Virus record (IMG/VR): IMGVR_UViG_3300007640_000104
Location: 1 to 35,421 of that record
Origin: a virus
Lineage: Duplodnaviria > Caudoviricetes
Direction: 5' to 3' (one strand)
Length of the DNA stretch: 35,421 nucleotides
How positions within the stretch are numbered: the first letter of the stretch is position 1; each line of letters begins with the position of its first letter. Of the stretch, positions 6,259-27,914 are shown piece by piece. Below the pieces are notes generated by a model. It saw only the letters and a program-made list of their open reading frames with translations, ran no database searches and was not told the origin of the DNA. The translations under genes were made by a program, and so were the position numbers.

Positions 6259-6681
6259 TTATTTAACCTTGATTTCCTGAGCTTTTATTTCTTCTGGTTC
6301 ATTAACACCTAATTTAACTGTTAATATACCGTCTTCCATTTTAGCTTCATCTACAACAACATCATTTCTCAATGAGAATTGTTTAAAGAATTTTCTAGCT
6401 GCAAGACCTTTTTCGATATATTCTTTTTCCTTGTCATCTACTTGACCAGCAACAGTTAATATACCGTCTTTGTATTCAACTTTGATATTCTTTTTATTGA
6501 ATCCAGCTAAACCTAGTTCAATTCCGTACTCACCTTTTCCGTATTTTACCACATTGTAAAATGGAAACGATTGTACTTTTGATAAATTCATAAACATTTC
6601 GTCAAATGAATCACCAAATAATGTGTTTGATTTATTCCAAAGATCTTTTTGGAATTTGTTAATTATATCTAAACCTGTCAT
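6259..6681 (-). CDS. hsp20: Small heat shock protein (Hsp20/IbpA family)
   Basis: FPFYNVVK, IELGLAGF, KGLAARKFFKQFSL and AKMEDGILTVKL alpha-crystallin motifs. RBS AAGGAGG. Confidence 0.95.
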   Translation of the reverse strand: MTGLDIINKFQKDLWNKSNTLFGDSFDEMFMNLSKVQSFPFYNVVKYGKGEYGIELGLAGFNKKNIKVEYKDGILTVAGQVDDKEKEYIEKGLAARKFFKQFSLRNDVVVDEAKMEDGILTVKLGVNEPEEIKAQEIKVK

Positions 6682-12906: not shown

Positions 12907-13135
12907 AGAAGATCTTGAACGAGTGTTTCCATCTAACAGACAAGAAGGTGGTGATCATTACAGTAAACACACAATACAGCCCTATACATTTATAACAGAA
13001 AACAATCTTTCTTTTTTTCAAGGAAACGTAATTAAATATGTTGTGCGTTACAAAGATAAAAATGGAATAGAAGACCTAAAAAAGATAATTCATTATTGTG
13101 AGTTAGAGATAGAGAGGATGAGAAATGCTAAATAA
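12896..13135 (+). CDS. DUF3310 protein (T7 gp1.7-like nucleotide kinase family)
   Basis: QEGGDHY, IQP, FFQGNVIKYVVRYKDKNGIEDLKK. Confidence 0.9.
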   Translation: MTTKEDLERVFPSNRQEGGDHYSKHTIQPYTFITENNLSFFQGNVIKYVVRYKDKNGIEDLKKIIHYCELEIERMRNAK

Positions 13136-13796
13136 GGAAATTATACCTTTATTTTCACATAATATTTTTAAATATAGAATTGATCCTAAATTATTTAACA
13201 AGAAAAAAATTTTAGATACTATTAATTCAAATTATAATAAAAAAAAGTATAGAAACAATTGGGATCACAATCAAGTTTTTCCTAGTAATTTTCATCACAG
13301 TAATAAAGATGAAGACAATAAAAATTTTTTAATCCCAGATTATTCTTCACTATTACCTATTTACGAAAATATATTTAAAAACTTATATACTAATTTAAAA
13401 TTTAAAACGGGTATTAAATTTAATTTTAGTTTTGACATTGTAAATTATACTTGTAGTGATGAAGATCAATTTATGAGAAAACACGACCATGTTAGAGATT
13501 CTGATTTTTCTTGTGTTCATTATTTACAATTTGATAATGAACATGCACCTACTGTATTTTACAATCCAAGTGAATTTATAGGTAGAGAAACATTAAAACT
13601 TTTAAGAAATAACTTTTTTAAAAAGTTAGATGATAATTATTTAGAAAATTCAGGTTATTTTAAATTATTAACACTGCAATGTGAAGAGGATGATATGATT
13701 ATATTTCCATCACATTTAGAACATGCTGTACCTCAAGTAAGAGAAAAATATAAACAAAATAGAATAACAATAGTTACAAATACTCGTATTGAATGA
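13125..13796 (+). CDS. 2OG-Fe(II) oxygenase superfamily protein
   Basis: HDH..SDFSCVHYL, IIFPSHLEHAV and RITIVTN. Confidence 0.9.
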   Translation: MLNKEIIPLFSHNIFKYRIDPKLFNKKKILDTINSNYNKKKYRNNWDHNQVFPSNFHHSNKDEDNKNFLIPDYSSLLPIYENIFKNLYTNLKFKTGIKFNFSFDIVNYTCSDEDQFMRKHDHVRDSDFSCVHYLQFDNEHAPTVFYNPSEFIGRETLKLLRNNFFKKLDDNYLENSGYFKLLTLQCEEDDMIIFPSHLEHAVPQVREKYKQNRITIVTNTRIE

Positions 13797-14458
13797 TGAG
13801 TAAACCTATAGAAATACATACCAATTTATTTGGCAGGCTAAAAGAACATAAGGTGGATATTAAAACTGCCGTAGATGTAGGTTGTTATAAAGGAGAATGG
13901 TCTAAACGATTAAAAAAAATTTATCCAAACGTAAACTTATACTTAATTGATGCCTCTGATACATATGCAAAAGAATTAAATGAACTAGGAACTTTTATTA
14001 GTGCATATGTAGGTCAAAATGAAGAAGAAAGAGATTTTTATCATAGTGATCAAAGTGAAACAGGAGACTCTTTGTATTTAGAAAACTCTAATATTAAATT
14101 TAATTCTAAAAAAATTAAAACTAAAAAATTAATGGATATAATTCCATTTCAAAATTATGATTATATAAAAATGGATGTGCAAGGAGCAGAACTAGAAATT
14201 ATAGAAGGTTCTTTACCTTTGTTTACAAAAACAAAATGGGTTCAATTAGAATGTCCTATTCATCCTAATAATGAAGGAGCTCCTAATTTTGCACAAATTA
14301 TTAATTATATGACAAATAGCGGATTTGAAACCTTTGATATTGAAAATATATTTTACAATAGGAAATTAATGTGTATAGATTTTCTTTTTAATAATATTAC
14401 TTTACCAAAAGTAACTGCCTTAGAATCTAAAACAATAGAATATAATATAACTAAATGA
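13793..14458 (+). CDS. FkbM-family SAM methyltransferase
   Basis: VDVGCYKGEWS, YIKMDVQGAELEII and DFLF. Confidence 0.9.
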   Translation: MMSKPIEIHTNLFGRLKEHKVDIKTAVDVGCYKGEWSKRLKKIYPNVNLYLIDASDTYAKELNELGTFISAYVGQNEEERDFYHSDQSETGDSLYLENSNIKFNSKKIKTKKLMDIIPFQNYDYIKMDVQGAELEIIEGSLPLFTKTKWVQLECPIHPNNEGAPNFAQIINYMTNSGFETFDIENIFYNRKLMCIDFLFNNITLPKVTALESKTIEYNITK

Positions 14459-16329
14459 CTACACAACTAACATTTACACAGACTGAAAGTGACTGGACAC
14501 CGCCCACCGAATACCCAGACTTAACAAACAGATCAGTTATCGCAATTGACTTAGAAACAAGAGATCCAGATATAAAACAAAAAGGACCAGGTTGGGCTAC
14601 AAAAAATGGAGAAGTAGTTGGAATTGCTGTAGCTGCAGATGGATTCAAAGGTTACTTTCCTATTGCACACGAAAAGGGACCAAACTTAGATCCTGGTATG
14701 ACTTTAAAATGGTTTGCAAAAATGATGGCGTCAGATGCAGACAAGATTTGTCATAATGCTTCATACGATATTGGTTGGTGTAAAGCTATGGGTATCAAAG
14801 TAAATGGAAGAATCATTGATACGATGTTAGCTGGAGCTATTATTGATGAAAACAGAAGAGGTTATTCTTTAAATGCATTATCTGCAGAGTATTTAGGTGA
14901 AGTTAAAGTAGAAACAAAATTAAGAGAGAAAGCAGAAGAGTGGGGTCTTGATGCAAAACAAGATTTGTGGAGATTGCCAGCAAGCTTTGTTGGAGAGTAC
15001 GCAGAACAAGATGCAGAACTAACTTTAAAGTTATGGAGAAAATTTGAAACAGAAATAAGAACTCAAAACTTACAAACCATATTTGATATGGAAACTAAAT
15101 TGTTACCTATCTTAATTGAAATGCGAGAGCATGGAATCAGAGTGGATTTAGATAAAGCAGATAAAATGAAAAAAGTTTTTGTTCAAGAAGAACAGAAAAA
15201 AGTCAAAGAAATCAAAGATTTAACAGGTGTTGATGTAGAAATATGGGCGGCGGTATCTTTAGCGAAAGCTTTTGACGCACTTAAAATACCTTATGATCGA
15301 ACAGAAAAAACAAAAGCACCTAGCTTTACATCCAATTGGCTGTTAAATTGCACTCATCCTTTAGCTAAACTTGTAAGAGAAGCTAGGGAGATGAATAAAT
15401 TTCATTCAACATTTATCGATAGTATATTTAAATATGAACATAAAGGACGAATTCACGCGGAAATTAATCAGTTACGTAGTGATAATGGGGGGACTGTTAG
15501 CGGTAGGCTTTCTATGTCAAACCCAAACCTCCAACAAGTACCAGCAAGAAACAAAGAATTTGGAAAACAAATTCGATCATTATTTTTGCCTGATGAAGGA
15601 ACCAAATGGGGTTCATTCGACTACTCTCAACAAGAACCAAGACTTGTGGTGCATTATGCATCTTCAGTCGATTCAGGATTCGAAGGATCCTTTGAATTAA
15701 TTAAAGCATATGAAAAAGAAGACACGGACTTTCACCAAGTGGTTGCTGATATGGCTGATATACCTCGATCGCAAGCGAAAACAATCAATCTTGGGCTCTT
15801 TTACGGAATGGGAGCTGCGAAGTTATCGAGAGAACTTGGTATTGATACGGAGTCTGCGAAAAATCTTTTAGCAGAATATAATCGTAAAGTACCTTTTGTA
15901 AAACAACTTGCGAATCGTTGTATGGCGGTTGCAGATAAAAAAGGTTGTGTGGTGACGATACGAGGAAGACATTGTAGATTTAATATGTGGGAACCAAAGT
16001 CGTGGGGTGTATATACTCCAATGACATTGCAAGAGGCATCTTCTAAATACGAAATGCATCAATTGAAACGTGCAGGAACTTACAAAGCATTAAACAGATT
16101 GATACAAGGTAGTGCAGCAGATCAAACTAAACAAGCGATTATAGATTGTTACGACAACGGCCACAGGCCACTGTTACAAATTCATGATGAACTTTGTTTT
16201 AATATTACATCAGACGAAGATACAAAAACAATTCAATCAAAAATGGAACACTGTTTAGATGACGTACCTATGAAAGTCCCTTCAAAAGTTGATATTGCAA
16301 TTGGTGATAATTGGGGCGATGCCACTTAG
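14455..16329 (+). CDS. polA: Family A DNA polymerase (3'-5' exo + pol, no 5'-3' exo), Leu762 type
   Basis: IDLET, HNASYD, YAEQDA, SGRLSMSNPNLQQVP, DYSQQEPR, RSQAKTINLGLFYG, IQGSAAD and QIHDEL. Confidence 0.97.
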   Translation: MTTQLTFTQTESDWTPPTEYPDLTNRSVIAIDLETRDPDIKQKGPGWATKNGEVVGIAVAADGFKGYFPIAHEKGPNLDPGMTLKWFAKMMASDADKICHNASYDIGWCKAMGIKVNGRIIDTMLAGAIIDENRRGYSLNALSAEYLGEVKVETKLREKAEEWGLDAKQDLWRLPASFVGEYAEQDAELTLKLWRKFETEIRTQNLQTIFDMETKLLPILIEMREHGIRVDLDKADKMKKVFVQEEQKKVKEIKDLTGVDVEIWAAVSLAKAFDALKIPYDRTEKTKAPSFTSNWLLNCTHPLAKLVREAREMNKFHSTFIDSIFKYEHKGRIHAEINQLRSDNGGTVSGRLSMSNPNLQQVPARNKEFGKQIRSLFLPDEGTKWGSFDYSQQEPRLVVHYASSVDSGFEGSFELIKAYEKEDTDFHQVVADMADIPRSQAKTINLGLFYGMGAAKLSRELGIDTESAKNLLAEYNRKVPFVKQLANRCMAVADKKGCVVTIRGRHCRFNMWEPKSWGVYTPMTLQEASSKYEMHQLKRAGTYKALNRLIQGSAADQTKQAIIDCYDNGHRPLLQIHDELCFNITSDEDTKTIQSKMEHCLDDVPMKVPSKVDIAIGDNWGDAT

Positions 16330-16957
16330 AATATTACACGTAAGAACATCTAAAACAGCTAGCACTGCATTACAAACGTGGGTTGGAATAAATCAAGAAT
16401 TTATTAAATCCACAGATAATACAAAATGGTTGAATCAGCCCAATAATCAAAATAAATTACAAGATAAACAATTTAATATTTATATAACTTCTGTAAGAAA
16501 TCCATATCGAAGAGCTTATTCGCAATACAAATATTTAATAAGAGACAATAATTGGAAAAAATATTGCACTCCACAATCTTTCAAAGAATTTTTAGAAATT
16601 GATTTTACTAAAATTAACCATCAACATTTATCTACCCATATGACCCCAATAAGTTATTATTTAGGAAAATCTCTTAATGGTAAAACGGTTCATTACCTTA
16701 AAGCAGAAAGATTATATGAAGATATAGGTATATTATGTAAAACATATGATTTGAAACCGCCTAAAGAAAAAAAAATAATTTATGAAACTCATTATTACAA
16801 ACCAGAGATGAATGAGCAATTTAAAAATAAAGAAATAAGAGAATTATGTTATAATAAATACAAAGATGATTTTATTAACTTTAATTACAATAAAGAAGAT
16901 TACAAAGATTTATATCCAGAACAAGCGCACTTAAAAAGTATATATTGCGATAGGTGA
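16319..16957 (+). CDS. Sulfotransferase family 2 (carbohydrate sulfotransferase-like)
   Basis: 5'-PSB-like HVRTSKTASTAL, 3'-PB SVRNPYRRAYSQY and C-terminal YKDDFINFNY. ATG 16319 overlaps the polA end. Confidence 0.8.
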   Translation: MPLRILHVRTSKTASTALQTWVGINQEFIKSTDNTKWLNQPNNQNKLQDKQFNIYITSVRNPYRRAYSQYKYLIRDNNWKKYCTPQSFKEFLEIDFTKINHQHLSTHMTPISYYLGKSLNGKTVHYLKAERLYEDIGILCKTYDLKPPKEKKIIYETHYYKPEMNEQFKNKEIRELCYNKYKDDFINFNYNKEDYKDLYPEQAHLKSIYCDR

Positions 16958-17242: not shown

Positions 17243-17455
17243 TTAACCAGCAAAAGCGTGTATTTCGTAATCTGTGCTATTGCCATTTGCAGTTTCAAAA
17301 TCTGATCTTGCAATCAGCTCTCTAACAACATCTTTAATTTGTCGAGAGATTGTCTGCATTTCATTTGTCACTTTGCCCTCTTCCATGAACTTAGTGTTCC
17401 AAAGAGACTCAAGAGCCATTTTCTTTGCTAAAAGTGACTGAGACGTTCTTACCAT
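17243..17455 (-). CDS. Hypothetical protein
   Basis: GAGGAG RBS, helical 70-aa ORF. Confidence 0.6.
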   Translation of the reverse strand: MVRTSQSLLAKKMALESLWNTKFMEEGKVTNEMQTISRQIKDVVRELIARSDFETANGNSTDYEIHAFAG

Positions 17456-17673: not shown

Positions 17674-17910
17674 TCAAGTTTTTTTGCCTTTTGTGGTTTC
17701 GATGCACCATAATTCTCCATTGGTAATTGTCAAGCCATTTCTTTCTAAAACAGCCCTAATTTCAATAGCTTTTCGTTTACCTGCATTATCACAATCACTT
17801 AAAGACTTGTAATGAACTACAGGTTCTTCCCAAAAATTCATACAGGATTCTCCCCATTGATTGTTATCCGCAAAACAAATCAAACCAAATAGTGCAAAAG
17901 TTTTTAACAT
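17674..17910 (-). CDS. Small exported/periplasmic-like protein with 4 Cys
   Basis: Hydrophobic N-terminus (FALFGLICF), then C...Y.S..DC...WC. Confidence 0.6.
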   Translation of the reverse strand: MLKTFALFGLICFADNNQWGESCMNFWEEPVVHYKSLSDCDNAGKRKAIEIRAVLERNGLTITNGELWCIETTKGKKT

Positions 17911-20064: not shown

Positions 20065-20304
20065 ATGACTGAATTTACGAAAGGTATATTTGTATTTTTA
20101 AAACTACAGCTACAGCATAGCTCATTGGCTCGAGCAATTATTTATACGGTAGGTCATATTTTTATTGCATCTTTATGTAATATTTTTATAACAGGTGCTG
20201 AATTACATTTAGCAACGGCCGATGCAATTATTGAGCCATTTATTAACGGAATCTGGTATTACTTACTAGATAAAACTTGGAGTAGGAGAATCTATACATC
20301 ATGA
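20065..20304 (+). CDS. DUF2061-like membrane protein
   Basis: ARAIIYTVGH...TGA...A.A.IEP.IN..WYY.LDK.W. Confidence 0.7.
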   Translation: MTEFTKGIFVFLKLQLQHSSLARAIIYTVGHIFIASLCNIFITGAELHLATADAIIEPFINGIWYYLLDKTWSRRIYTS

Positions 20305-21355: not shown

Positions 21356-21592
21356 GTGACTATGTGTCGAACAATCAACATGGGGAATATGATGAAATAT
21401 TCCTTTAATAATAAAAACGGATACCGATTCGTTGATACCAGACCTCTTTGTGCTAATTGTAGAGAAAAGAAAGCTGACGTCATGAAAGACAATTATTTCT
21501 TCTGTGGCGACTGTGCTTTGGAAATGCAAAACAGCAGAAAAACCACAAAAGAGTACCTTATTTCACAAAAATTACAAAAGACTGACCTCTAA
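21356..21592 (+). CDS. Small Zn-finger protein
   Basis: CANC...FCGDC. Start uncertain. Confidence 0.55.
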   Translation: MTMCRTINMGNMMKYSFNNKNGYRFVDTRPLCANCREKKADVMKDNYFFCGDCALEMQNSRKTTKEYLISQKLQKTDL

Positions 21593-21639
21593 ATAGATAT
21601 TTTTACCCTTTTACTACTTCACTACCTCCAAAAAAAGTC

Positions 21640-21749
21640 TGACATACGTGACAAGACCTCTATTTTAGACATAAGACATTGAATATATTGAATAATACCC
21701 TGTCACAAACACTCTAAATCTGTGACATAGACCTGACATACCTGACATA
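21640..21749. repeat. Cluster of (T/A)GACATA-like direct and inverted repeats
   Basis: TGACATA at 21640, 21723, 21734 and 21743; variants at 21649, 21667 and 21674; TGTCACA(21701)/TGTGACA(21721) inverted pair. Confidence 0.75.
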
Positions 21750-21847
21750 AACTATCTTGTGGAATGAATACCTAAATGGTTCATGAATCTTGAAAAGGAT
21801 AAAAAGATCTTATTGGACTAGAAAAACTTGACCGATTTGAGTATGAT

Positions 21848-22363
21848 GTGGCGATGCCTAAAAAAGCTAATATATTAAAAACTGTACATGAACTAACTCC
21901 TAAACAAAGAAAGTTTGTGGATACACTTGTTGCTAATTGGGGGGCTATCTCTAAATCTAAAGCAGCGGAAGAAGCTGGATATAAATCAAAAACTAAAAAT
22001 GGTTTATCAGAGATGGCATCAAGATTAACTAATCCAAATTTAAATCCTCATGTGGTTAGATATCTTGAAAAGAAATTAGCACAAGAAGAAGCAAAGTATG
22101 GAAACAAACTTCGTTCCTTTAAAAGATTAGAAAAGTTTGGCGACTTAGCCGTAGATAAAAATCAATTTGCAGCAGCAATTAATTCGGAATTTAGACTAGG
22201 ACAACTAGCAGGAATGTATGTAGATAGAAAAGAAGTAACTCATAATATGTTGGAGGGTATGTCTCGTGAACAACTTGAAAAAAGGTTATCCGAATTGGAA
22301 CAAAAGATCGGTGATGCCAAAAATATCATTGACGTCACGCCAGAAGAAATTGTGGAAGAGTAA
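21848..22363 (+). CDS. terS: Terminase small subunit
   Basis: LTPKQRKFV...AAEEAGY...ASRL HTH and AAIN.E..LG.LAGMYVDRKE. Start may be ATG 21854. Confidence 0.85.
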   Translation: MAMPKKANILKTVHELTPKQRKFVDTLVANWGAISKSKAAEEAGYKSKTKNGLSEMASRLTNPNLNPHVVRYLEKKLAQEEAKYGNKLRSFKRLEKFGDLAVDKNQFAAAINSEFRLGQLAGMYVDRKEVTHNMLEGMSREQLEKRLSELEQKIGDAKNIIDVTPEEIVEE

Positions 22364-22481: not shown

Positions 22482-22746
22482 AAAATCAAAAGATTGGAAA
22501 TCTCGTTATCCTCTCGTTGAAGTCCATTGGTATGATATATCTGCGGACGCCTCCTGGCATACTCTGAAGGAGCTTGCTGAGAAAGAACTTCCTGTTTGTG
22601 TTTCAAAAGGACATCTGTATTCTCAAAGCAAAGGTGTTACTAGGTTGTTTGGTGACTATTCTTTAAATGATAAAGACACTATTGACGACATCGGAAATAG
22701 CACAATTATACCTAGCTGTGTGATAAAGGAGATAAAAAAGATATGA
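22453..22746 (+). CDS. Conserved phage hypothetical protein
   Basis: V.V.W.D...W...C.S.G...IP..VI pattern. Confidence 0.7.
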   Translation: MAKRKITINKKSKDWKSRYPLVEVHWYDISADASWHTLKELAEKELPVCVSKGHLYSQSKGVTRLFGDYSLNDKDTIDDIGNSTIIPSCVIKEIKKI

Positions 22747-22880
22747 AAGAAGCAAAAAGATTAAGAATTTTACAAGCCCAAAAGCAACTCAAAAAAGAAA
22801 AAATTAAAAAGTTTTTAAGTAAAGTATTACCTTTTTCTGTTTGTGTTTTACTTGGTTTAGCACTCATCTTGACCTATTAA
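22743..22880 (+). CDS. 45-aa basic protein with C-terminal TM, not in ORF track
   Basis: MKEAKRLRILQAQKQLKKEKIKKFLSKVLPFSVCVLLGLALILTY*; ATGA overlap. Confidence 0.55.
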   Translation: MKEAKRLRILQAQKQLKKEKIKKFLSKVLPFSVCVLLGLALILTY

Positions 22881-22881
22881 A

Positions 22882-23274
22882 ATGGCGTTAAGAAAACGTG
22901 AATCAAAGCTGTTTGACCGATTAAAGAAGAATATAAAAAACGTACATTTTACAAGGATAGAAAGCTCAACTATTAACGGAATACCTGATGTTCATGGCAC
23001 TGGTTCTGGTCATTCTTTTTGGCTTGAATTAAAATCTAATACTGGCAAGTTTCCGAAGCTTGATAAATTCCAAATCGCTTGGTGTTACGAAGAATACCGA
23101 CATGGTGGTAGAGTTTTTATTCTGTATCAAGCCCTCTCGCAGGGAGCCCTAGAACTTTACAGCGTGCAAGGTATCCCTACCGACAGTAAAAACCTCGTTC
23201 TCGTACACTCGCTACCCGACCCTGTTCCCGTTTCCCGTTGGGATGAGCTCAGGTCCTTCCTGATCCATCACTAG
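22882..23274 (+). CDS. VRR-NUC/Holliday-junction-resolvase-like PD-(D/E)XK nuclease
   Basis: ES.L...RIES...GIPDV...FWLELK...Q.AW...GG..FIL. Confidence 0.85.
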   Translation: MALRKRESKLFDRLKKNIKNVHFTRIESSTINGIPDVHGTGSGHSFWLELKSNTGKFPKLDKFQIAWCYEEYRHGGRVFILYQALSQGALELYSVQGIPTDSKNLVLVHSLPDPVPVSRWDELRSFLIHH

Positions 23275-23650
23275 CCTCCTCCCAGATGGTGAGCTGCAGC
23301 GTGGTCGGTATCCCGTTTCCCGTTCTCGTTTGTTAATCCCGTTTCTCGTTTATTAACGGACACCGCAGGATCCTCCTTCGCAGCTCAGGATGCTGGTGCG
23401 GAAAGAGTAGCTCAGTTCCCGTTTCCCGTTTGACAAAGAACAACAGATTGGTTAGGTTTTGGTAAGCAGCGTCAGGACCAGCTGCGAAGCAACCGTTTCC
23501 CGTTTCCCGTTCTTACACGAATGGGCGTGTAATAACTAATAAGCATCAGGAGCGTCCTTCGCAGCGAAGCTCATTCCCGTATCTCGTTGGTCGGTGGCGA
23601 AAGGCAAATGGTTAGGGAACACAGGACACCATCCTTCTGGCAGCTCAGGA
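23194..23650 (+). repeat. Quasi-periodic heptamer-doublet array (CCCGTTTCCCGTT) with unique GC-rich spacers
   Basis: Copies at 23227, 23312, 23418 and 23499; variants at 23338, 23576 and 23194. Spacing 77-106 nt. Confidence 0.85.
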
Positions 23651-23669
23651 AAAAAATAAAAATTAGCTC

Positions 23670-23727
23670 TTGACATTCAGGTTTACATATCTTATCTAGA
23701 TGGGATAACTTTAACAAAGGAGAAACA
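23670..23727 (+). promoter_or_regulatory. Sigma70-like promoter with palindromic operator and conserved leader
   Basis: A-tract, TTGACA(23670), TATCTTATC-TA-GATGGGATA, then CTTTAACAAAGGAGAAACA-ATG. Confidence 0.7.
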
Positions 23728-23994
23728 ATGACTAAACCACAACAGTTCGTCTACTTCAAAGATCTACAGAAGGGGGACGTCATCAAAACGAATCACTTAC
23801 ATCCGCTGCATCATGTGACTGCGAAGGTGATGGAATCACCGCGCCAGGGTAAAGGAGTCAAGAAAACACTTCTGTGTGAAGTCCACGGTACTCAGCTAGG
23901 ATTGTTTGATGAAGTAGGATCTATCTACAGCAAACAGGCGCTGCTGCGTTTGAATGCCGACAACACAACTTGGAGCAGGATTCTTCATGACTAA
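23728..23994 (+). CDS. Hypothetical (probable early) protein
   Basis: Strong RBS, beta-rich 88-aa ORF. Confidence 0.75.
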   Translation: MTKPQQFVYFKDLQKGDVIKTNHLHPLHHVTAKVMESPRQGKGVKKTLLCEVHGTQLGLFDEVGSIYSKQALLRLNADNTTWSRILHD

Positions 23995-24271
23995 GATGGA
24001 TGCACCAGAAGCGGGACAGGAATATCTCTTGGTTGGGGGATCCAAAGATAAATGCATTGCCAACGGCAACAGCTGGGCGGAGAGTAAGGTGAAGAAACGT
24101 TACCTCGTTCTCGTATCAGATGTCGTTGCTCGTAGGGTCTACGTTGAGGCCTCGTCGGAGAAGGAAGCTCTGGAGGCTGCGGACTACGGTGAGTGGGAGC
24201 TGCCTGCAGATGTAGAAAGCGAAGAGGTGGTGGAGCGTCAGGCGGTTGAGGTTCTCGATGTGGAAGAATGA
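23987..24271 (+). CDS. Hypothetical acidic protein with DpnD/PcfM-like C-terminus
   Basis: RYLVLV.....VYVEASSEKEALE. ATG 23987 overlaps the upstream stop region. Confidence 0.6.
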   Translation: MTKMDAPEAGQEYLLVGGSKDKCIANGNSWAESKVKKRYLVLVSDVVARRVYVEASSEKEALEAADYGEWELPADVESEEVVERQAVEVLDVEE

Positions 24272-24274
24272 TGA

Positions 24275-24400
24275 ATGTGGTTTCTAATTCTCGTACTGTT
24301 AATCGTCAGCGTCTCGTTGACAACCGATGCCGATTGGGTAACCTTCGGCGTCGGACTGCTGGCTCTGGCGATGGCAGATGGGCTGATGAACTTTTTTTAA
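24275..24400 (+). CDS. 41-aa two-TM membrane mini-protein, not in ORF track
   Basis: MWFLILVLLIVSVSLTTDADWVTFGVGLLALAMADGLMNFF*. Confidence 0.6.
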   Translation: MWFLILVLLIVSVSLTTDADWVTFGVGLLALAMADGLMNFF

Positions 24401-24418
24401 ATACAACCAAAAAGTTAG

Positions 24419-24479
24419 TTGACAAGTTCTCTTATTATGATAAGACAGAAGAAAACAAAACTTTAACAAAGGAGTTACA
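24419..24479 (+). promoter_or_regulatory. Promoter with operator and conserved leader
   Basis: TTGACA(24419), TCTTAT-TATG-ATAAGA, then CTTTAACAAAGGAGTTACA-ATG. Confidence 0.65.
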
Positions 24480-24887
24480 ATGGGGTTAGATATGTACATG
24501 TACAGCACTGACAAACGTATAGAAAGTTTGGAAGTGGAAAACAGAGAAAAGAAAGAGGGAGAAGAAGAGCAAGAAAGGGAGTTAGGGTATTGGCGAAAGC
24601 ACAATCGTTTGCATGGTTGGTTTGAGGAGAAGTGGTGTAATCGTCATAGTGATGTTGACACCGATTTCAACTGTGTTCGGTATTACCTTTCTCGTGATGA
24701 GTTGCTGAATTTGGAAAAAGATATTAAGGAAGAAAAGTTGCCCGCCACGCAAGGTTTCTTCTTTGGCAATGATAGTTACTCGTATGATGAACATGAGGAG
24801 CAGAAAAAATATGACTTGGACATCATTGATAAAGCAAAAAAAGAACTTGAAGCTGGTCGCTTTGTGTACTATTCAAGTTGGTGGTAA
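24480..24887 (+). CDS. Conserved phage protein (MGLDMY...YWRK...YSSWW family)
   Basis: MGLDMY, YWRKHN.LHGW, LP...GFFFG and YYSSWW motifs. Confidence 0.85.
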   Translation: MGLDMYMYSTDKRIESLEVENREKKEGEEEQERELGYWRKHNRLHGWFEEKWCNRHSDVDTDFNCVRYYLSRDELLNLEKDIKEEKLPATQGFFFGNDSYSYDEHEEQKKYDLDIIDKAKKELEAGRFVYYSSWW

Positions 24888-24897
24888 TTAAGTTTCT

Positions 24898-25095
24898 CGG
24901 TGGCGAGTAGCACTCTCGCCACCGTTCTTGGCTGATGAATTCTCGGATAGCAGAATTCACCAACCAAGCTCGTACGGAAAAAGATAACATCGCTTCGGTT
25001 GGAAGCACGGTACGGTCAGCACCAAGGGGAGTTTCCCAAAGCTGACCACAATATGAGTGGTCTTTTGTCAGAGTAGCTCCTGTTTTAGACCACTC
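24898..25095. ncRNA. Candidate structured RNA/processing region with five adjacent stem-loops
   Basis: Stems at 24898-24924, 24927-24968, 24992-25006, 25014-25047 and 25055-25095. Confidence 0.45.
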
Positions 25096-25324
25096 GCCCT
25101 AATCTCGTTCTTTCTCGTTATCAAACATTTCTTAAAATCTTGAGGGTACTAGGATACCTCGCAACCTCGTTTCGTCAATTCTCGGGCATCTATGGAAGAC
25201 TTTTTTAAGCAGGCAGCACCCAAAATGGCAGGATTGCAGAAAATCTAAAAAATAAAAATGTAAAAATTTTATCCACAAACCAAGTAAAAAATAATTAAAA
25301 TTTATTTTTTATAACTATTGTAAT

Positions 25325-25398
25325 TTGTAAAAAAATACTTATCTTATCCAAGATAAGATAAAATAATTTATCTTATTTAACTTAACAAAGAGGAAACA
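25325..25398 (+). promoter_or_regulatory. Promoter with triple operator and conserved leader
   Basis: TTATCTTATC-CAA-GATAAGATAA (25339-25361), a third half-site at 25367-25376, then CTTAACAAAGAGGAAACA-ATG. Confidence 0.65.
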
Positions 25399-25785
25399 AT
25401 GACAACAGTAAAACAAAAAAATCTGCCGACAGTAAGTCAAGCAGATAAACGTGTGCTTAATTCATACGTTGCTCAATCTTACTTATACAAAAAGTATAGT
25501 AAGTTAAGAACTGATACTAAAGAAATTGTATCGGGAATTTTTGATAGAGCAAAAATCAATATCATAATTCTTGATAACAAATCTTTTGTTCAAAAAATAA
25601 ATCGTAATCAAAGGCGATTCGATTCCACTTCTTTTATTGAGTATGTAAATAAAAGTGGCGACAGTGAATTAATCGACATGGTTAATAAATTCTATAAGTC
25701 AGTTGATACAGTAGAGTTTAAACCATTTAATGCTGATTATGATTTAGCCATGAAAAAAGATTTAGGGGGTTTTGATGTCAAATAA
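25399..25785 (+). CDS. Hypothetical protein
   Basis: GAGG RBS, 128-aa ORF. Confidence 0.7.
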   Translation: MTTVKQKNLPTVSQADKRVLNSYVAQSYLYKKYSKLRTDTKEIVSGIFDRAKINIIILDNKSFVQKINRNQRRFDSTSFIEYVNKSGDSELIDMVNKFYKSVDTVEFKPFNADYDLAMKKDLGGFDVK

Positions 25786-26065
25786 AAACTTACCTTCTTT
25801 ATTCAGTGCTATGTTAAGTGAAAAAGTTGATAGTAAAAATATCGACTTAAATCGAGTACATAGTTTAATGCAGAATGAAAAATTCAAATCATTAAATTAT
25901 GAGATACTTTATAAATTCCTTGAGAGTGCTGTTGAGGAATTTATACTTACTAACAATGGCAACCCACTTGCTGATGACTTTAGAAATAGAGTTGTTAATA
26001 AAATGGGTGATGTGTTGAACTTGTTACTAACTGGCAAAGTTGCTGATGAGCAAGATAAACATTAA
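25775..26065 (+). CDS. Hypothetical protein
   Basis: Overlapping coupling with the upstream gene; LNYEILYKFLES..EE motif. Confidence 0.65.
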   Translation: MSNKNLPSLFSAMLSEKVDSKNIDLNRVHSLMQNEKFKSLNYEILYKFLESAVEEFILTNNGNPLADDFRNRVVNKMGDVLNLLLTGKVADEQDKH

Positions 26066-26303
26066 ATACACTGATGATATTCCCCCGATTGTTTCGGGGG
26101 TGTATCTACTCATTAACTCAAAGAATAATAGAGTTGATTATGTTGGGTGTTCGAGGAATGTGTATCAATGTGTTATGGGTAGTTATCACTTAAACCCCAA
26201 GATACATAAGTTAAGAGTATTACAATGCTCATGGAATAACTTGCGGTACTACCAAAAAAGAATAGCCAATATGTTTAGACCTAGATTAAACTCTATTAGA
26301 TAA
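26046..26303 (+). CDS. Minimal, degenerate GIY-YIG-like protein
   Basis: SGVYLL...DYVGCSRN...P.LN. Canonical catalytic Arg and Glu not evident. Confidence 0.6.
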   Translation: MSKINIKYTDDIPPIVSGVYLLINSKNNRVDYVGCSRNVYQCVMGSYHLNPKIHKLRVLQCSWNNLRYYQKRIANMFRPRLNSIR

Positions 26304-26318
26304 ATCTATACCGATAGA

Positions 26319-26391
26319 GGTACCATCGCCGATCTGGAATTAGGATCGGCGATCGGCAACCCCCACCCCCTTTTGCTTGATTTATGGTACC
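26319..26391. other. GC-rich hairpin + C-tract flanked by GGTACC palindromes (terminator or packaging signal)
   Basis: ATCGCCGATC(26325)/GATCGGCGAT(26344), ACCCCCACCCCCTTTT, GGTACC at 26319 and 26386. Confidence 0.5.
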
Positions 26392-26444
26392 AGCGACGAA
26401 GACTTTACAGCCGATTACATACATGTATAGTATGCAAAATAGAT

Positions 26445-27914
26445 ATGTCGCACGAATTACTTACAACTGAACAGTTGCGCGATAGAGTCGAAAAATTATA
26501 TATTGAACACATTAAACTGTGCCAAGATAATTTCTTGTATTTTGTTCAAACTGTTTGGCCAGATTTTATTTGTAGAAAAGAAAAGGACCCAAAGAAATGG
26601 GGCCACCATCAACATATTGCCGACGAACTTACTAAAATTTCAAAAGGTTTGAATAAGAGGCTCATTGTTAATATGCCCCCACGTCATACTAAATCTGAAT
26701 TTGCATCCTATTTATTTCCAGCTTGGTTCATAGGGAAGTTTCCTAAGAAAAAAATTATGCAGGTATCTCACAACGCAGAACTTGCAGGAAGGTTCGGAAG
26801 TAAGGTTCGTAACTTAATTGATAGCCCAGAGTATAAACAGATCTTCGGAGATGTTAAACTACGAGAAGATAGTAAGGCAAAAGGCCGATGGGAGACCAAT
26901 CATGGTGGGGAATATTTTGCAGCGGGTGTAGGCGGTTCTATCACAGGACGAGGGGCGGACTTACTTATTATCGACGATCCACATACCGAACAAGACTCAT
27001 TATCCGATTCAGCTATGGAGAGAGCGTATGACTGGTACAATTCAGGACCCAGACAACGTTTGCAACCAGGAGGAACCATTGTCGTTGTTATGACCCGTTG
27101 GGCTCAAGACGATATTACAGGAAGACTCATCAAAGCACAAAGTGAACCTAAAGCGGATAAATGGAAGTTAATAGAATTTCCTGCCATCTTACAATCAGGT
27201 AATCCTGTTTGGCCAGAGTATTGGTCACTCGAAGAACTAGAAGGTGTTAAGGCATCTATCTCACCTAGAAACTGGAATGCACAGTACATGCAGGACCCAG
27301 TGGCCGAGGAAGGCGCAATCTTAAAACGTGAATGGTGGCAGCCTTGGAAAGGACAGGTTCCAGATTTAAAACATATTATCCAAAGTTATGATACAGCATT
27401 TTCTAAAAAAGAAACTGCAGACTATTCTGCCATTACAACATGGGGGATATTTGAACCTAGTCCAGGGGAGAATGCTTTAATTTTATTAGACGCAGAAAAA
27501 GGTCGTTGGGATTTTCCAGAACTAAAAGCAGTCGCTATGGAAGCATATAAGTATTGGGAACCAGAGTCCATTATTGTAGAGGCAAAGGCCACTGGCCAAC
27601 CGCTCATTCAAGAGATGCGTAGAGCAGGTATTCCTGTAATGGATTTCGTACCTACCCGTGGTAAAGATAAACATTCTAGAGTAAATGCTTGTGCTCCTGT
27701 ATTTGAGTCAGGTAATGTTTACTATCCTCATGGAGAGCATTTTGCAGAGGAAGTTATTGAAGAATGCGCAGCATTTCCTTATGGTCAGTATGATGATTTT
27801 GTAGATAGTACAACACAAGCTGTGTTAAGATATCGTCAAGGTAATTTCGTATCAACTTATATGGATGAACCAGAACCAATGAAAATTGAAGGAGAATATA
27901 AATACTATGCCTGA
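26445..27914 (+). CDS. terL: Terminase large subunit
   Basis: NMPPRHTKS, LLIIDDPH, VVMTRW, SYDTAF, DYSA, IVEAKATG and DDFVDS. ATG at 26445. Confidence 0.97.
   Translation: MSHELLTTEQLRDRVEKLYIEHIKLCQDNFLYFVQTVWPDFICRKEKDPKKWGHHQHIADELTKISKGLNKRLIVNMPPRHTKSEFASYLFPAWFIGKFPKKKIMQVSHNAELAGRFGSKVRNLIDSPEYKQIFGDVKLREDSKAKGRWETNHGGEYFAAGVGGSITGRGADLLIIDDPHTEQDSLSDSAMERAYDWYNSGPRQRLQPGGTIVVVMTRWAQDDITGRLIKAQSEPKADKWKLIEFPAILQSGNPVWPEYWSLEELEGVKASISPRNWNAQYMQDPVAEEGAILKREWWQPWKGQVPDLKHIIQSYDTAFSKKETADYSAITTWGIFEPSPGENALILLDAEKGRWDFPELKAVAMEAYKYWEPESIIVEAKATGQPLIQEMRRAGIPVMDFVPTRGKDKHSRVNACAPVFESGNVYYPHGEHFAEEVIEECAAFPYGQYDDFVDSTTQAVLRYRQGNFVSTYMDEPEPMKIEGEYKYYA

Follow-up and report, generated by a model that had tools for sequence, protein, structure and literature searches.

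The question raised by this locus is what an array of short repeats, placed directly behind the gene for a PD-(D/E)XK nuclease in a virus record (IMG/VR IMGVR_UViG_3300007640_000104; Duplodnaviria; Caudoviricetes), is made for. The first-pass annotation left two options, a genome-end, packaging or ejection signal on the one hand, and on the other a transcript processed into unit RNAs of about 80–100 nt that partner the adjacent nuclease. The whole record of 35,421 nt (positions 1 to 35,421), hereafter the window, was analyzed; it is a linear viral record with an estimated completeness of 58%. The window is assigned to the HTVC023P-type pelagiphages by its TerL (Table 1), for which the best named matches outside this group are 30–44% identical. 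According to a preprint (bioRxiv 2019.12.14.876532), no other known group of marine phages is as abundant as the HTVC023P type.

The order of genes around the array is terS, two small genes, the nuclease, the array, a promoter-like site, small variable genes, and terL. The Pfam match of terS falls just under the curated cut-off. The array occupies the stretch between the 3' end of the nuclease gene, in which it starts, and the first promoter of early type between terS and terL. This promoter candidate at 23670 is not in the list of the consensus scanner, but the same layout is present in relatives; the leader AACAAAGGAG belongs to the first early-type gene. The counts of the promoter and terminator scan were at the chance level, and none of its elements was listed within the array. 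The variable genes that follow are early by position only, while early timing is known for HTVC027P genes at the corresponding position: the early-clustered genes gp34–39, the last six of 15 'early' entries in the available part of PMC12753301 (Table S3), sit between the nuclease gene (~16216–16570) and terL.

Table 1. Features of the window around the repeat array (positions in nt; a point marks a feature without strand)
Feature	Position	Strand	Basis or remark
Terminase small subunit (terS)	21848..22363	+	Pfam Terminase_2 E 2e-5; PHROG 51, 641, 1595
PD-(D/E)XK nuclease, VRR-NUC/Hjc Holliday-junction-resolvase type	22882..23274	+	130 aa
Word clusters 1 and 2 (CTCGTT-type and CCCGTT-type doublets)	23193..23239	+	in the nuclease gene
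Predicted terminal repeat	23194..26400	.	contig depth about doubled; both edges approximate
Five inter-cluster segments	23240..23650	+	62–73 nt each
Word cluster 3	23309..23350	+	five words
Word cluster 4	23415..23430	+	TTGACA hexamer directly after, at 23430
Word cluster 5	23493..23511	+	three words; then TTACACG/CGTGTAA hairpin, 23509–23536
Word cluster 6	23573..23588	+	
Candidate sigma70-like promoter (TTGACA, 17 nt, TATCTA) and leader AACAAAGGAG	23670..23727	+	by eye
Variable module of small genes, nuclease to terL, early by position	23728..26303	+	ORFs
ATAGAGGTACCA, conserved non-coding site present once; candidate for the right-hand cut	26314..26325	+	
Terminase large subunit (terL)	26445..27914	+	78.7% identical to Pelagibacter phage HTVC023P TerL; PHROG 38 E 3e-120

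Several other features of the window were recorded. A second repeat patch, with TGACATA-type words and inverted copies, lies before terS (21580-21760); it is iteron-like and a candidate replication origin, and the depth does not rise there. At the matching position, HTVC023P carries CTAGGA six times and MinM2 a GTCATA cluster. Right behind terS of HTVC023P (L001:12470-12565) is a 33-bp tandem repeat in three copies, similar to its post-nuclease repeats. Within the variable module, the ORF at 25399-25785 codes for a conserved early-type protein of 128 aa with no Pfam or PHROG family, and its C-terminal RFD motif presumably recalls the tail of YqaJ recombinases. A small heat-shock-like protein, a 2OG-Fe(II)-oxygenase-like ORF and an FkbM-like methyltransferase were noted by eye at 6259-6681 (-) and 13125-14458.

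The repeats reported by the first-pass annotation were all found in place. CCCGTTTCCCGTT is present at 23227, 23312, 23418 and 23499 and absent elsewhere on both strands of the window, and a variant copy is located at 23576. The intervals of 85, 106, 81 and 77 nt are correct for these copies, but a copy at 23338 had been overlooked, and the series then becomes 85, 26, 80, 81 and 77. The second motif family, GCAGCTCAGGA (23380 and 23640), CCTTCGCAGC (23375 and 23556) and GCGAAGC (23484 and 23564), and the inverted pairs TTACACG/CGTGTAA and GTTAAT/ATTAAC were likewise as described. The same is true of the setting: the gap is GC-rich in an AT-rich genome (GC 0.49 vs about 0.33 in the flanks) and non-coding, with no ORF of at least 50 aa between 23275 and 23727, and its first copies are embedded in the 3' end of the nuclease gene, where word clusters 1 and 2 fall within the last 27 codons.

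The unit, however, is not a fixed 13-nt repeat but a word of 6–7 nt, YCYCGTT, arranged on one strand in clusters of 2–5 that are about 80–100 nt apart. Between 23190 and 23650, 15 instances of the form YCYCGTW were counted; in 2000 dinucleotide shuffles the mean was 0.54 and the highest count 4. The best 13-mer was present four times in the array and at most twice in 2000 such shuffles. The array is the top local word cluster of the window (-log10P 14.5; runner-up 6.9). Beyond it, words on the same strand are located at 22501, 22512, 24103, 24109, 24289, 24312, 25103, 25113 and 25165, partly within ORFs, those in the variable module being scattered over 24103–24317 and 25103–25171. The segments between clusters mostly consist of an AT-richer part and then a GC-rich CAG/CTG block, contain CAGGA six times, and are 49–63% alike among themselves.

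As to RNA elements, no Rfam match at E<=1 was detected in 22500–26500. Folding of the array in the window gave z values of -1.34 (+ strand) and -2.10 (- strand) relative to shuffles, and the means in 25 relatives were -1.6 and -1.5, with no strand preference. Two special readings were discarded. As an anti-Shine-Dalgarno element, the core word at 23323–23336 is complementary at 13 of 14 positions to the leader at 23711–23724, but this reading was rejected because relative L006 has lost the complementarity and the word mismatches AAGGAG. A CsrA-sponge reading of the six CAGGA copies was set aside because alphaproteobacteria, to our knowledge, generally lack CsrA.

A pattern scan of metagenome contigs gave no match. 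A total of 209 loci of relatives, redundant loci included, had enough sequence behind the nuclease gene. A YCGTT cloud was identified in 86 and a GCTTG or GCTCG cloud in 74, while 49, mostly of the HTVC023P subclade, carried neither. Within this last group, the 28 loci inspected mostly have a hairpin after the stop codon and two or three AT-rich repeats of 50–58 nt, which differ between close relatives. On comparison of these sequences, the position of the array is kept in relatives and its word changes by lineage (YCGTT, GCTTG heptamers, or 50–58-nt repeats). Among 39 non-redundant YCGTT relatives, CTCGTT was counted 318 times on one strand and once on the other, successive words were 6 or 7 nt apart, and the distances between word pairs had maxima at 70–110 and 160–200 nt and a minimum at 40–60. 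The GCTTG loci gave 228 gaps of exactly 7 nt and no 85-nt period. At the 3' end of the nuclease gene, the word density increased about fifty-fold and on one strand only, in 15 YCGTT loci from 0.4 to 19.6 per kb and in 19 GCTTG loci from 0.3 to 19.9 per kb; within terL, both word types had fallen below 1 per kb again. One heptamer run of HTVC027P is contained in gp32, a gene on the opposite strand; in DSL-LC04 no clear cloud follows the nuclease gene and a CCGTG cloud is located before terL.

The first-pass annotation had proposed a check for conserved repeats with varying spacers downstream of homologous nuclease genes. The conservation held for the position of the array, with a lineage-specific word, but the spacers turned out to be inherited by position: they are 80–99% alike in L006, and in L011 and L012 the first, the last and some middle spacers are 63–85% alike. 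Whole units were lost or gained between strains of the clade of the window. The number of word-type changes needed was two on the TerS tree, two on TerL, three on the nuclease and five on a gp22-like gene; these trees (71 rows; 37 for TerL and 67 for the gp22-like gene) were made by a quick method with no mixture model and exclude the long or unclassified rows L004 and L218. On these trees the word-type pattern appears to be explained by shared descent, and no reader protein is singled out. Members of the HTVC023P subclade have almost the same TerS but different long repeats, which counts against a strict sequence read-out by TerS. The loci L137-L141 have nucleases 65–67% identical to that of HTVC023P, yet carry a YCGTT array instead of long AT-rich repeats, and represent an early branch of this subclade or a recombinant.

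The assignment of the adjacent gene to the PD-(D/E)XK nucleases proved correct, the motif residues E7, D36, E49 and K51 being invariant in 46 relatives. Its profile matched 4QBN and 4QBO (VRR-NUC structures) and 1OB8, and an alignment-based model (pLDDT 88.5) had Hjc/Hje resolvases as the top fold matches; the single-sequence fold was poor (pLDDT 63). No match to Pfam VRR_NUC was obtained, and Hjc matched 13 of the 46 members. The E..PD..ExK catalytic motif and the Hjc fold, as seen by alignment, profile and model, point to a stand-alone resolvase of the Hjc/VRR-NUC type, and the model of the 130-aa protein consists of the resolvase fold with no added RNA-binding domain. Stand-alone VRR-Nuc proteins cut four-way junctions, as stated in the available part of PMC4103454. 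The gene is unannotated in HTVC027P (L002:16216-16570) and in 023Pt_psg01 (L003 near 15010-15395), and the annotated HTVC027P gp32, which overlaps the heptamer array on the opposite strand, may be a miscall. At L037:4050-4090 and L051:5400-5447, the repeat word lengthens the nuclease frame into an Arg-Ser dipeptide tail.

An RNA structure was identified in marine relatives of the window. A U-rich motif, about 30–145 nt from the nuclease stop codon, was present in 52 of 85 YCGTT loci (in L012 without a stem), as against 4 of 49 and 4 of 74 loci of the other word types. The motif forms the loop of a hairpin with compensatory changes at 8 of 10 consensus pairs (23 sequences) and with G-U pairs on the + strand; examples within the array are L014:5500-5560, L026:5406-5466 and L051:5504-5564. 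The loop is complementary to the leader, at the ribosome-binding site, of the homologue of window gene 25399–25785. Among the leaders of called ORFs, this cognate leader bound best in 15 of 26 loci and was within the top two in 22 of 26, a ranking in which the L014 leader was probably miscalled. The mean energy of own loop–leader pairs was -16.7 kcal/mol, against -15.4 for foreign pairs, and none of 10,000 permutations was as good, the loci being related; loop and leader seem to co-vary, for example in L042 and L051. The hairpin is a candidate translation-blocking RNA, and its complementarity points to translation control rather than nuclease guidance. It is absent from the clade of the window and therefore does not explain the array of the window.

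The listed runs numbered 24, all in the form of contigs, of which 22 were DNA runs and two RNA runs (shares 0.05–0.06). Sequencing depth was obtained from eight of the 22 DNA runs, on the 64 longest listed near-identical contig pieces, with 2137 and 724 further pieces beyond these. The eight runs share a habitat label, date from nearly the same year and possibly stem from a single campaign. Contig depth is a crude measure, one figure per contig summed over strains, and gives no copy number. The region behind the depth step (23.64–26.57 kb) was deeper than the upstream region in all eight runs (ratio 1.34–2.52, median 2.11), and deeper than the downstream region in all eight (1.39–2.04, median 1.71). 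Relative to the outside mean of each run, 18 inside pieces showed values of 1.42–2.56 and 38 outside pieces 0.64–1.38, with no overlap. From the eight pieces spanning the array, the step was estimated at a median position of 23194 (range 23089–23588). The pieces at 26090–26567 kept a high depth in X5, X7 and X8 and had an intermediate one in X6, and the depth at 27089 was close to the baseline, which places the right edge at about 26.3–27.0 kb. At the level of contigs, this is a multi-kb block of two-fold depth, from about 23.2 kb to about 26.3–26.6 kb, such as a long exact terminal repeat of the SPO1/T5 type gives, although three inside/upstream ratios exceeded 2.2, beyond the effect of a terminal repeat alone.

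GC bias was ruled out as the cause of the depth, because AT-rich inside pieces (GC 0.27–0.30) were equally high or higher. A second strain type, 95% identical, shares 75–89% of 31-mers at 24.4–25.6 kb and could inflate the depth there; its sharing in the array bin was 0.24, below most upstream bins (0.07–0.69). If the alleles form one haplotype, the minor-allele shares were alike outside and inside both in X1 (2.7/7 vs 5.18/13.1) and in X6 (23.5 on a baseline of ~41–43 vs 45.6/86.8). Contig ends did not pile up at the array, where nine ends were observed in 35 kb at risk (0.26 per kb, vs about 0.21 upstream); breaks per kb were 0.10–0.21 inside the module, about 0.21 upstream, and 0.29–0.49 near or in terL. 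Separately from the depth, contigs of X1 and X4 skip 141 nt at 24909-25051 and carry in their place 18 nt that end with the repeat word. This strain indel lies in the hairpin-rich non-coding stretch 24888–25398, into which many other contigs enter at about 25053–25098.

Close to the right edge of the depth block is a conserved site. The 9-nt core of ATAGAGGTACCA has a single copy in each of three genomes, the window, HTVC023P and HTVC027P, and is absent from psg01. ATAGAGGTACCA was exact in 25 of 42 loci and replaced by an AAGGCTC variant in 14, with neither form in three. The exact copies come from three deep lineages, whose non-coding DNA before terL cannot otherwise be aligned; the variant is that of marine YCGTT phages and is usually located behind a hairpin. 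The site AGAGGTACC was located at 20296 in HTVC027P and 17052 in HTVC023P, the repeat arrays at the nuclease 3' end being at about 16.5 and 14.9 kb, respectively. A word loosely like ATAGAGGTACCA is also found within the first 50 bp of T7.

Taken together, the array is a true feature that keeps its position in relatives. It most probably represents a packaging signal at a genome end, known in kind but new in form. That it lies at a genome end, headful packaging included, is quite probable from the depth. The more specific reading that we favor, with a probability of roughly 0.55, is that the array marks the left chromosome end, at the edge of a predicted terminal repeat of 3.1–3.4 kb with the early genes in it, and is bound by TerS for the end cut. 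The depth step would then reflect a repeat at both ends of the linear virion DNA. The clusters, about 80–100 nt apart, would serve as loading sites for terminase, with its first cut somewhere in ~23.1–23.6 kb and the second at or near ATAGAGGTACCA. The small subunit is the likely reader of the words, but several model phages have a TerS that binds pac DNA weakly or without specificity (PMC9611059, available part). The adjacent resolvase would debranch concatemers for packaging instead of using RNA guides. On infection, the inward host-type promoters at the array end would be the first to fire and would allow immediate early transcription, as in T7 and SPO1. The genome-end option of the first-pass annotation thus gains support from the roughly two-fold depth in 8 of 8 runs, the place of the array before the early module and the likeness to T7, though it is not proven.

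The same left depth step would result from headful packaging at a pac site, with a single cut at ~23.2 kb, rightward packaging, a redundancy of about 5–6% and a variable right end. The downstream depth is often above the upstream depth (ratio 0.90–1.60, median 1.17, above 1 in several runs), which fits headful packaging as well; in X5 the depth falls through 40.6, 34.4, 19.6, 16.9 and 10.8. According to the available part of PMC9611059, pac sites with multiple contacts are known in SPP1, but SPP1 uses pac about once per four packaging events, whereas a near two-fold step needs almost all molecules to start at pac. The right edge, in addition, roughly coincides with a conserved single-copy site, and we consider headful packaging unlikely. 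It is rather improbable that the words bind a phage or host protein controlling early promoters or DNA entry, their nearness to an end being incidental to that of the early module. Word clusters do occur near promoter-like TTGACA deeper in the module (window 24312–24317; L013) and beside TTGACA sites in HTVC027P (17396–17435 and 17719–17733), but the strand of the word follows the genome and not the promoter, since + words stand before + promoters in the window and behind - promoters in HTVC027P (gp33 and gp34), and the densest cluster begins within the nuclease gene at the depth step.

Fast turnover of tandem 6–7-nt words, with whole-unit indels, and the strain variants present in the runs would also suit a functionless microsatellite grown by slippage, the depth step then being an artefact of strain mixing or of the library. 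This is very unlikely, because position, strand and cluster spacing are fixed across relatives with 41–51% nuclease identity, an unrelated word takes the same place in another lineage, and GC-rich sequence is maintained in an AT-rich genome. A replication origin of iterons, with replicating DNA as the depth excess, would account for oriented short repeats near the depth peak of a phage with its own primase, helicase and polymerase genes, but the depth forms a one-sided step and plateau with no peak centered on the array, a separate iteron-like patch precedes terS, and the array is GC-rich with no turn of the cumulative GC skew; an origin here is hardly to be expected. Equally little credence can be given to the other option of the first-pass annotation, unit RNAs of 80–100 nt cut from an array transcript to guide or bind the nuclease. 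The nuclease is constantly adjacent in all three word lineages, the units are periodic, and the covarying + strand hairpin of marine relatives indicates that RNA structure can be selected here. Against this stand spacers inherited by position with whole-unit loss and no hypervariable acquisition, words inside ORFs including HTVC027P gp32 on the opposite strand, the lack of an Rfam match, the weak folding, and the fold of the nuclease, a resolvase type that cuts four-way junctions. Among 50,697 phage records, none matched the spacers at E<=1. CRISPR is further marked by evenly spaced, nearly identical repeats of about 23–50 nt, and these were not found either, the best 26-nt family being 65–77% alike at spacings of 26–85. 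The earlier label of a repeat-spacer array overstated the likeness to CRISPR, and an assignment as a CRISPR-like or RNA-guided nuclease array is not supported.

A wider proposal, possible but doubtful, extends the terminal-repeat reading to the family. HTVC023P-type pelagiphages would have a terminal repeat of 3–4 kb, with the left end marked by a lineage word code: clusters of YCGTT spaced 80–100 nt apart, runs of GCTTG heptamers, or repeats of 50–58 nt. The right end would be marked by a 12-nt site unchanged across the family, and in many marine members the hairpin RNA of the late transcript would block the ribosome-binding site of an early gene as a late-to-early switch.

The finding predicts the position of the virion DNA end and two cis sites. 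If the terminal repeat is true, the early module is doubled in each particle, biasing read-based abundance of its genes. How small terminases recognize their own DNA is still disputed (PMC9611059, available part), and the swaps of the repeat word between lineages, with two cultured members, are suited to a comparison of cognate and non-cognate binding. A false lead for an RNA-guided nuclease is also removed. The literature, subscription papers excepted, contained no report of the array, genome ends or packaging signals of HTVC023P-type phages, though the supplements of PMC7111524 and PMC9599517 may list ends of related genomes; neither genome ends nor headful packaging nor these repeats are mentioned in the available parts of two genome papers on the HTVC023P type.

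Among known systems, the arrays of Altae-Tran et al. (PMC10910872, available part) resemble the window in that spaced repeats lie next to a PD-(D/E)XK protein. There, the spacers are hypervariable, a promoter precedes the array, small RNAs are expressed and the protein is an AddB-like nuclease/helicase, whereas the spacers of the window are inherited, its unit is a cloud of short words, and its protein is a stand-alone resolvase. With the phage VRR-NUC/Hjc resolvases (4QBN, 4QBO, 1OB8) the window nuclease shares the catalytic motif, fold and size, but its activity is predicted only, and the Pfam VRR_NUC match is absent. The pac sites of SPP1 and P22 are, like the array, near terS, and SPP1 has several contacts around the first cut; pac of P22, however, is one 22-bp site inside terS, while the depth step of the window, about two-fold, lies ~0.8 kb and two or three genes beyond terS.

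The comparison with T7 drawn in the first-pass annotation holds, CCTAAAG being repeated there on one strand between positions 17 and 355, in front of promoters A1–A3. As in the window, a 7-nt word on one strand, in 16–17 copies within the first 355 bp, is followed by host sigma70 promoters and early genes; a many-copy short word on one strand and a following early module were both found in the window, with the promoter-like site at 23670 identified by eye. The T7 end repeats are named SRL and SRR, a copy being present also at the right end, and the terminal repeat of T7 is short (160 bp). T7 words are evenly spaced at 13 nt, while those of the window form clusters of 2–5 every 80–100 nt. Unlike that of T7, the array of the window starts inside a coding gene, its word changes by lineage, and the predicted repeat is ~3 kb; TerL of the window is only weakly similar to T7-type terminases (E about 2e-4). 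In size, the predicted repeat is similar to the long terminal repeat of Listeria phage CKA15 (3,134 bp), and the available parts of PMC3896407 and PMC12282133 place early genes, a host-takeover module, in the redundant part of SPO1 and CKA15. These two are Herelleviridae myoviruses of at least 137 kb, whereas the window is of a podovirus type of ~60 kb with a repeat predicted from depth.
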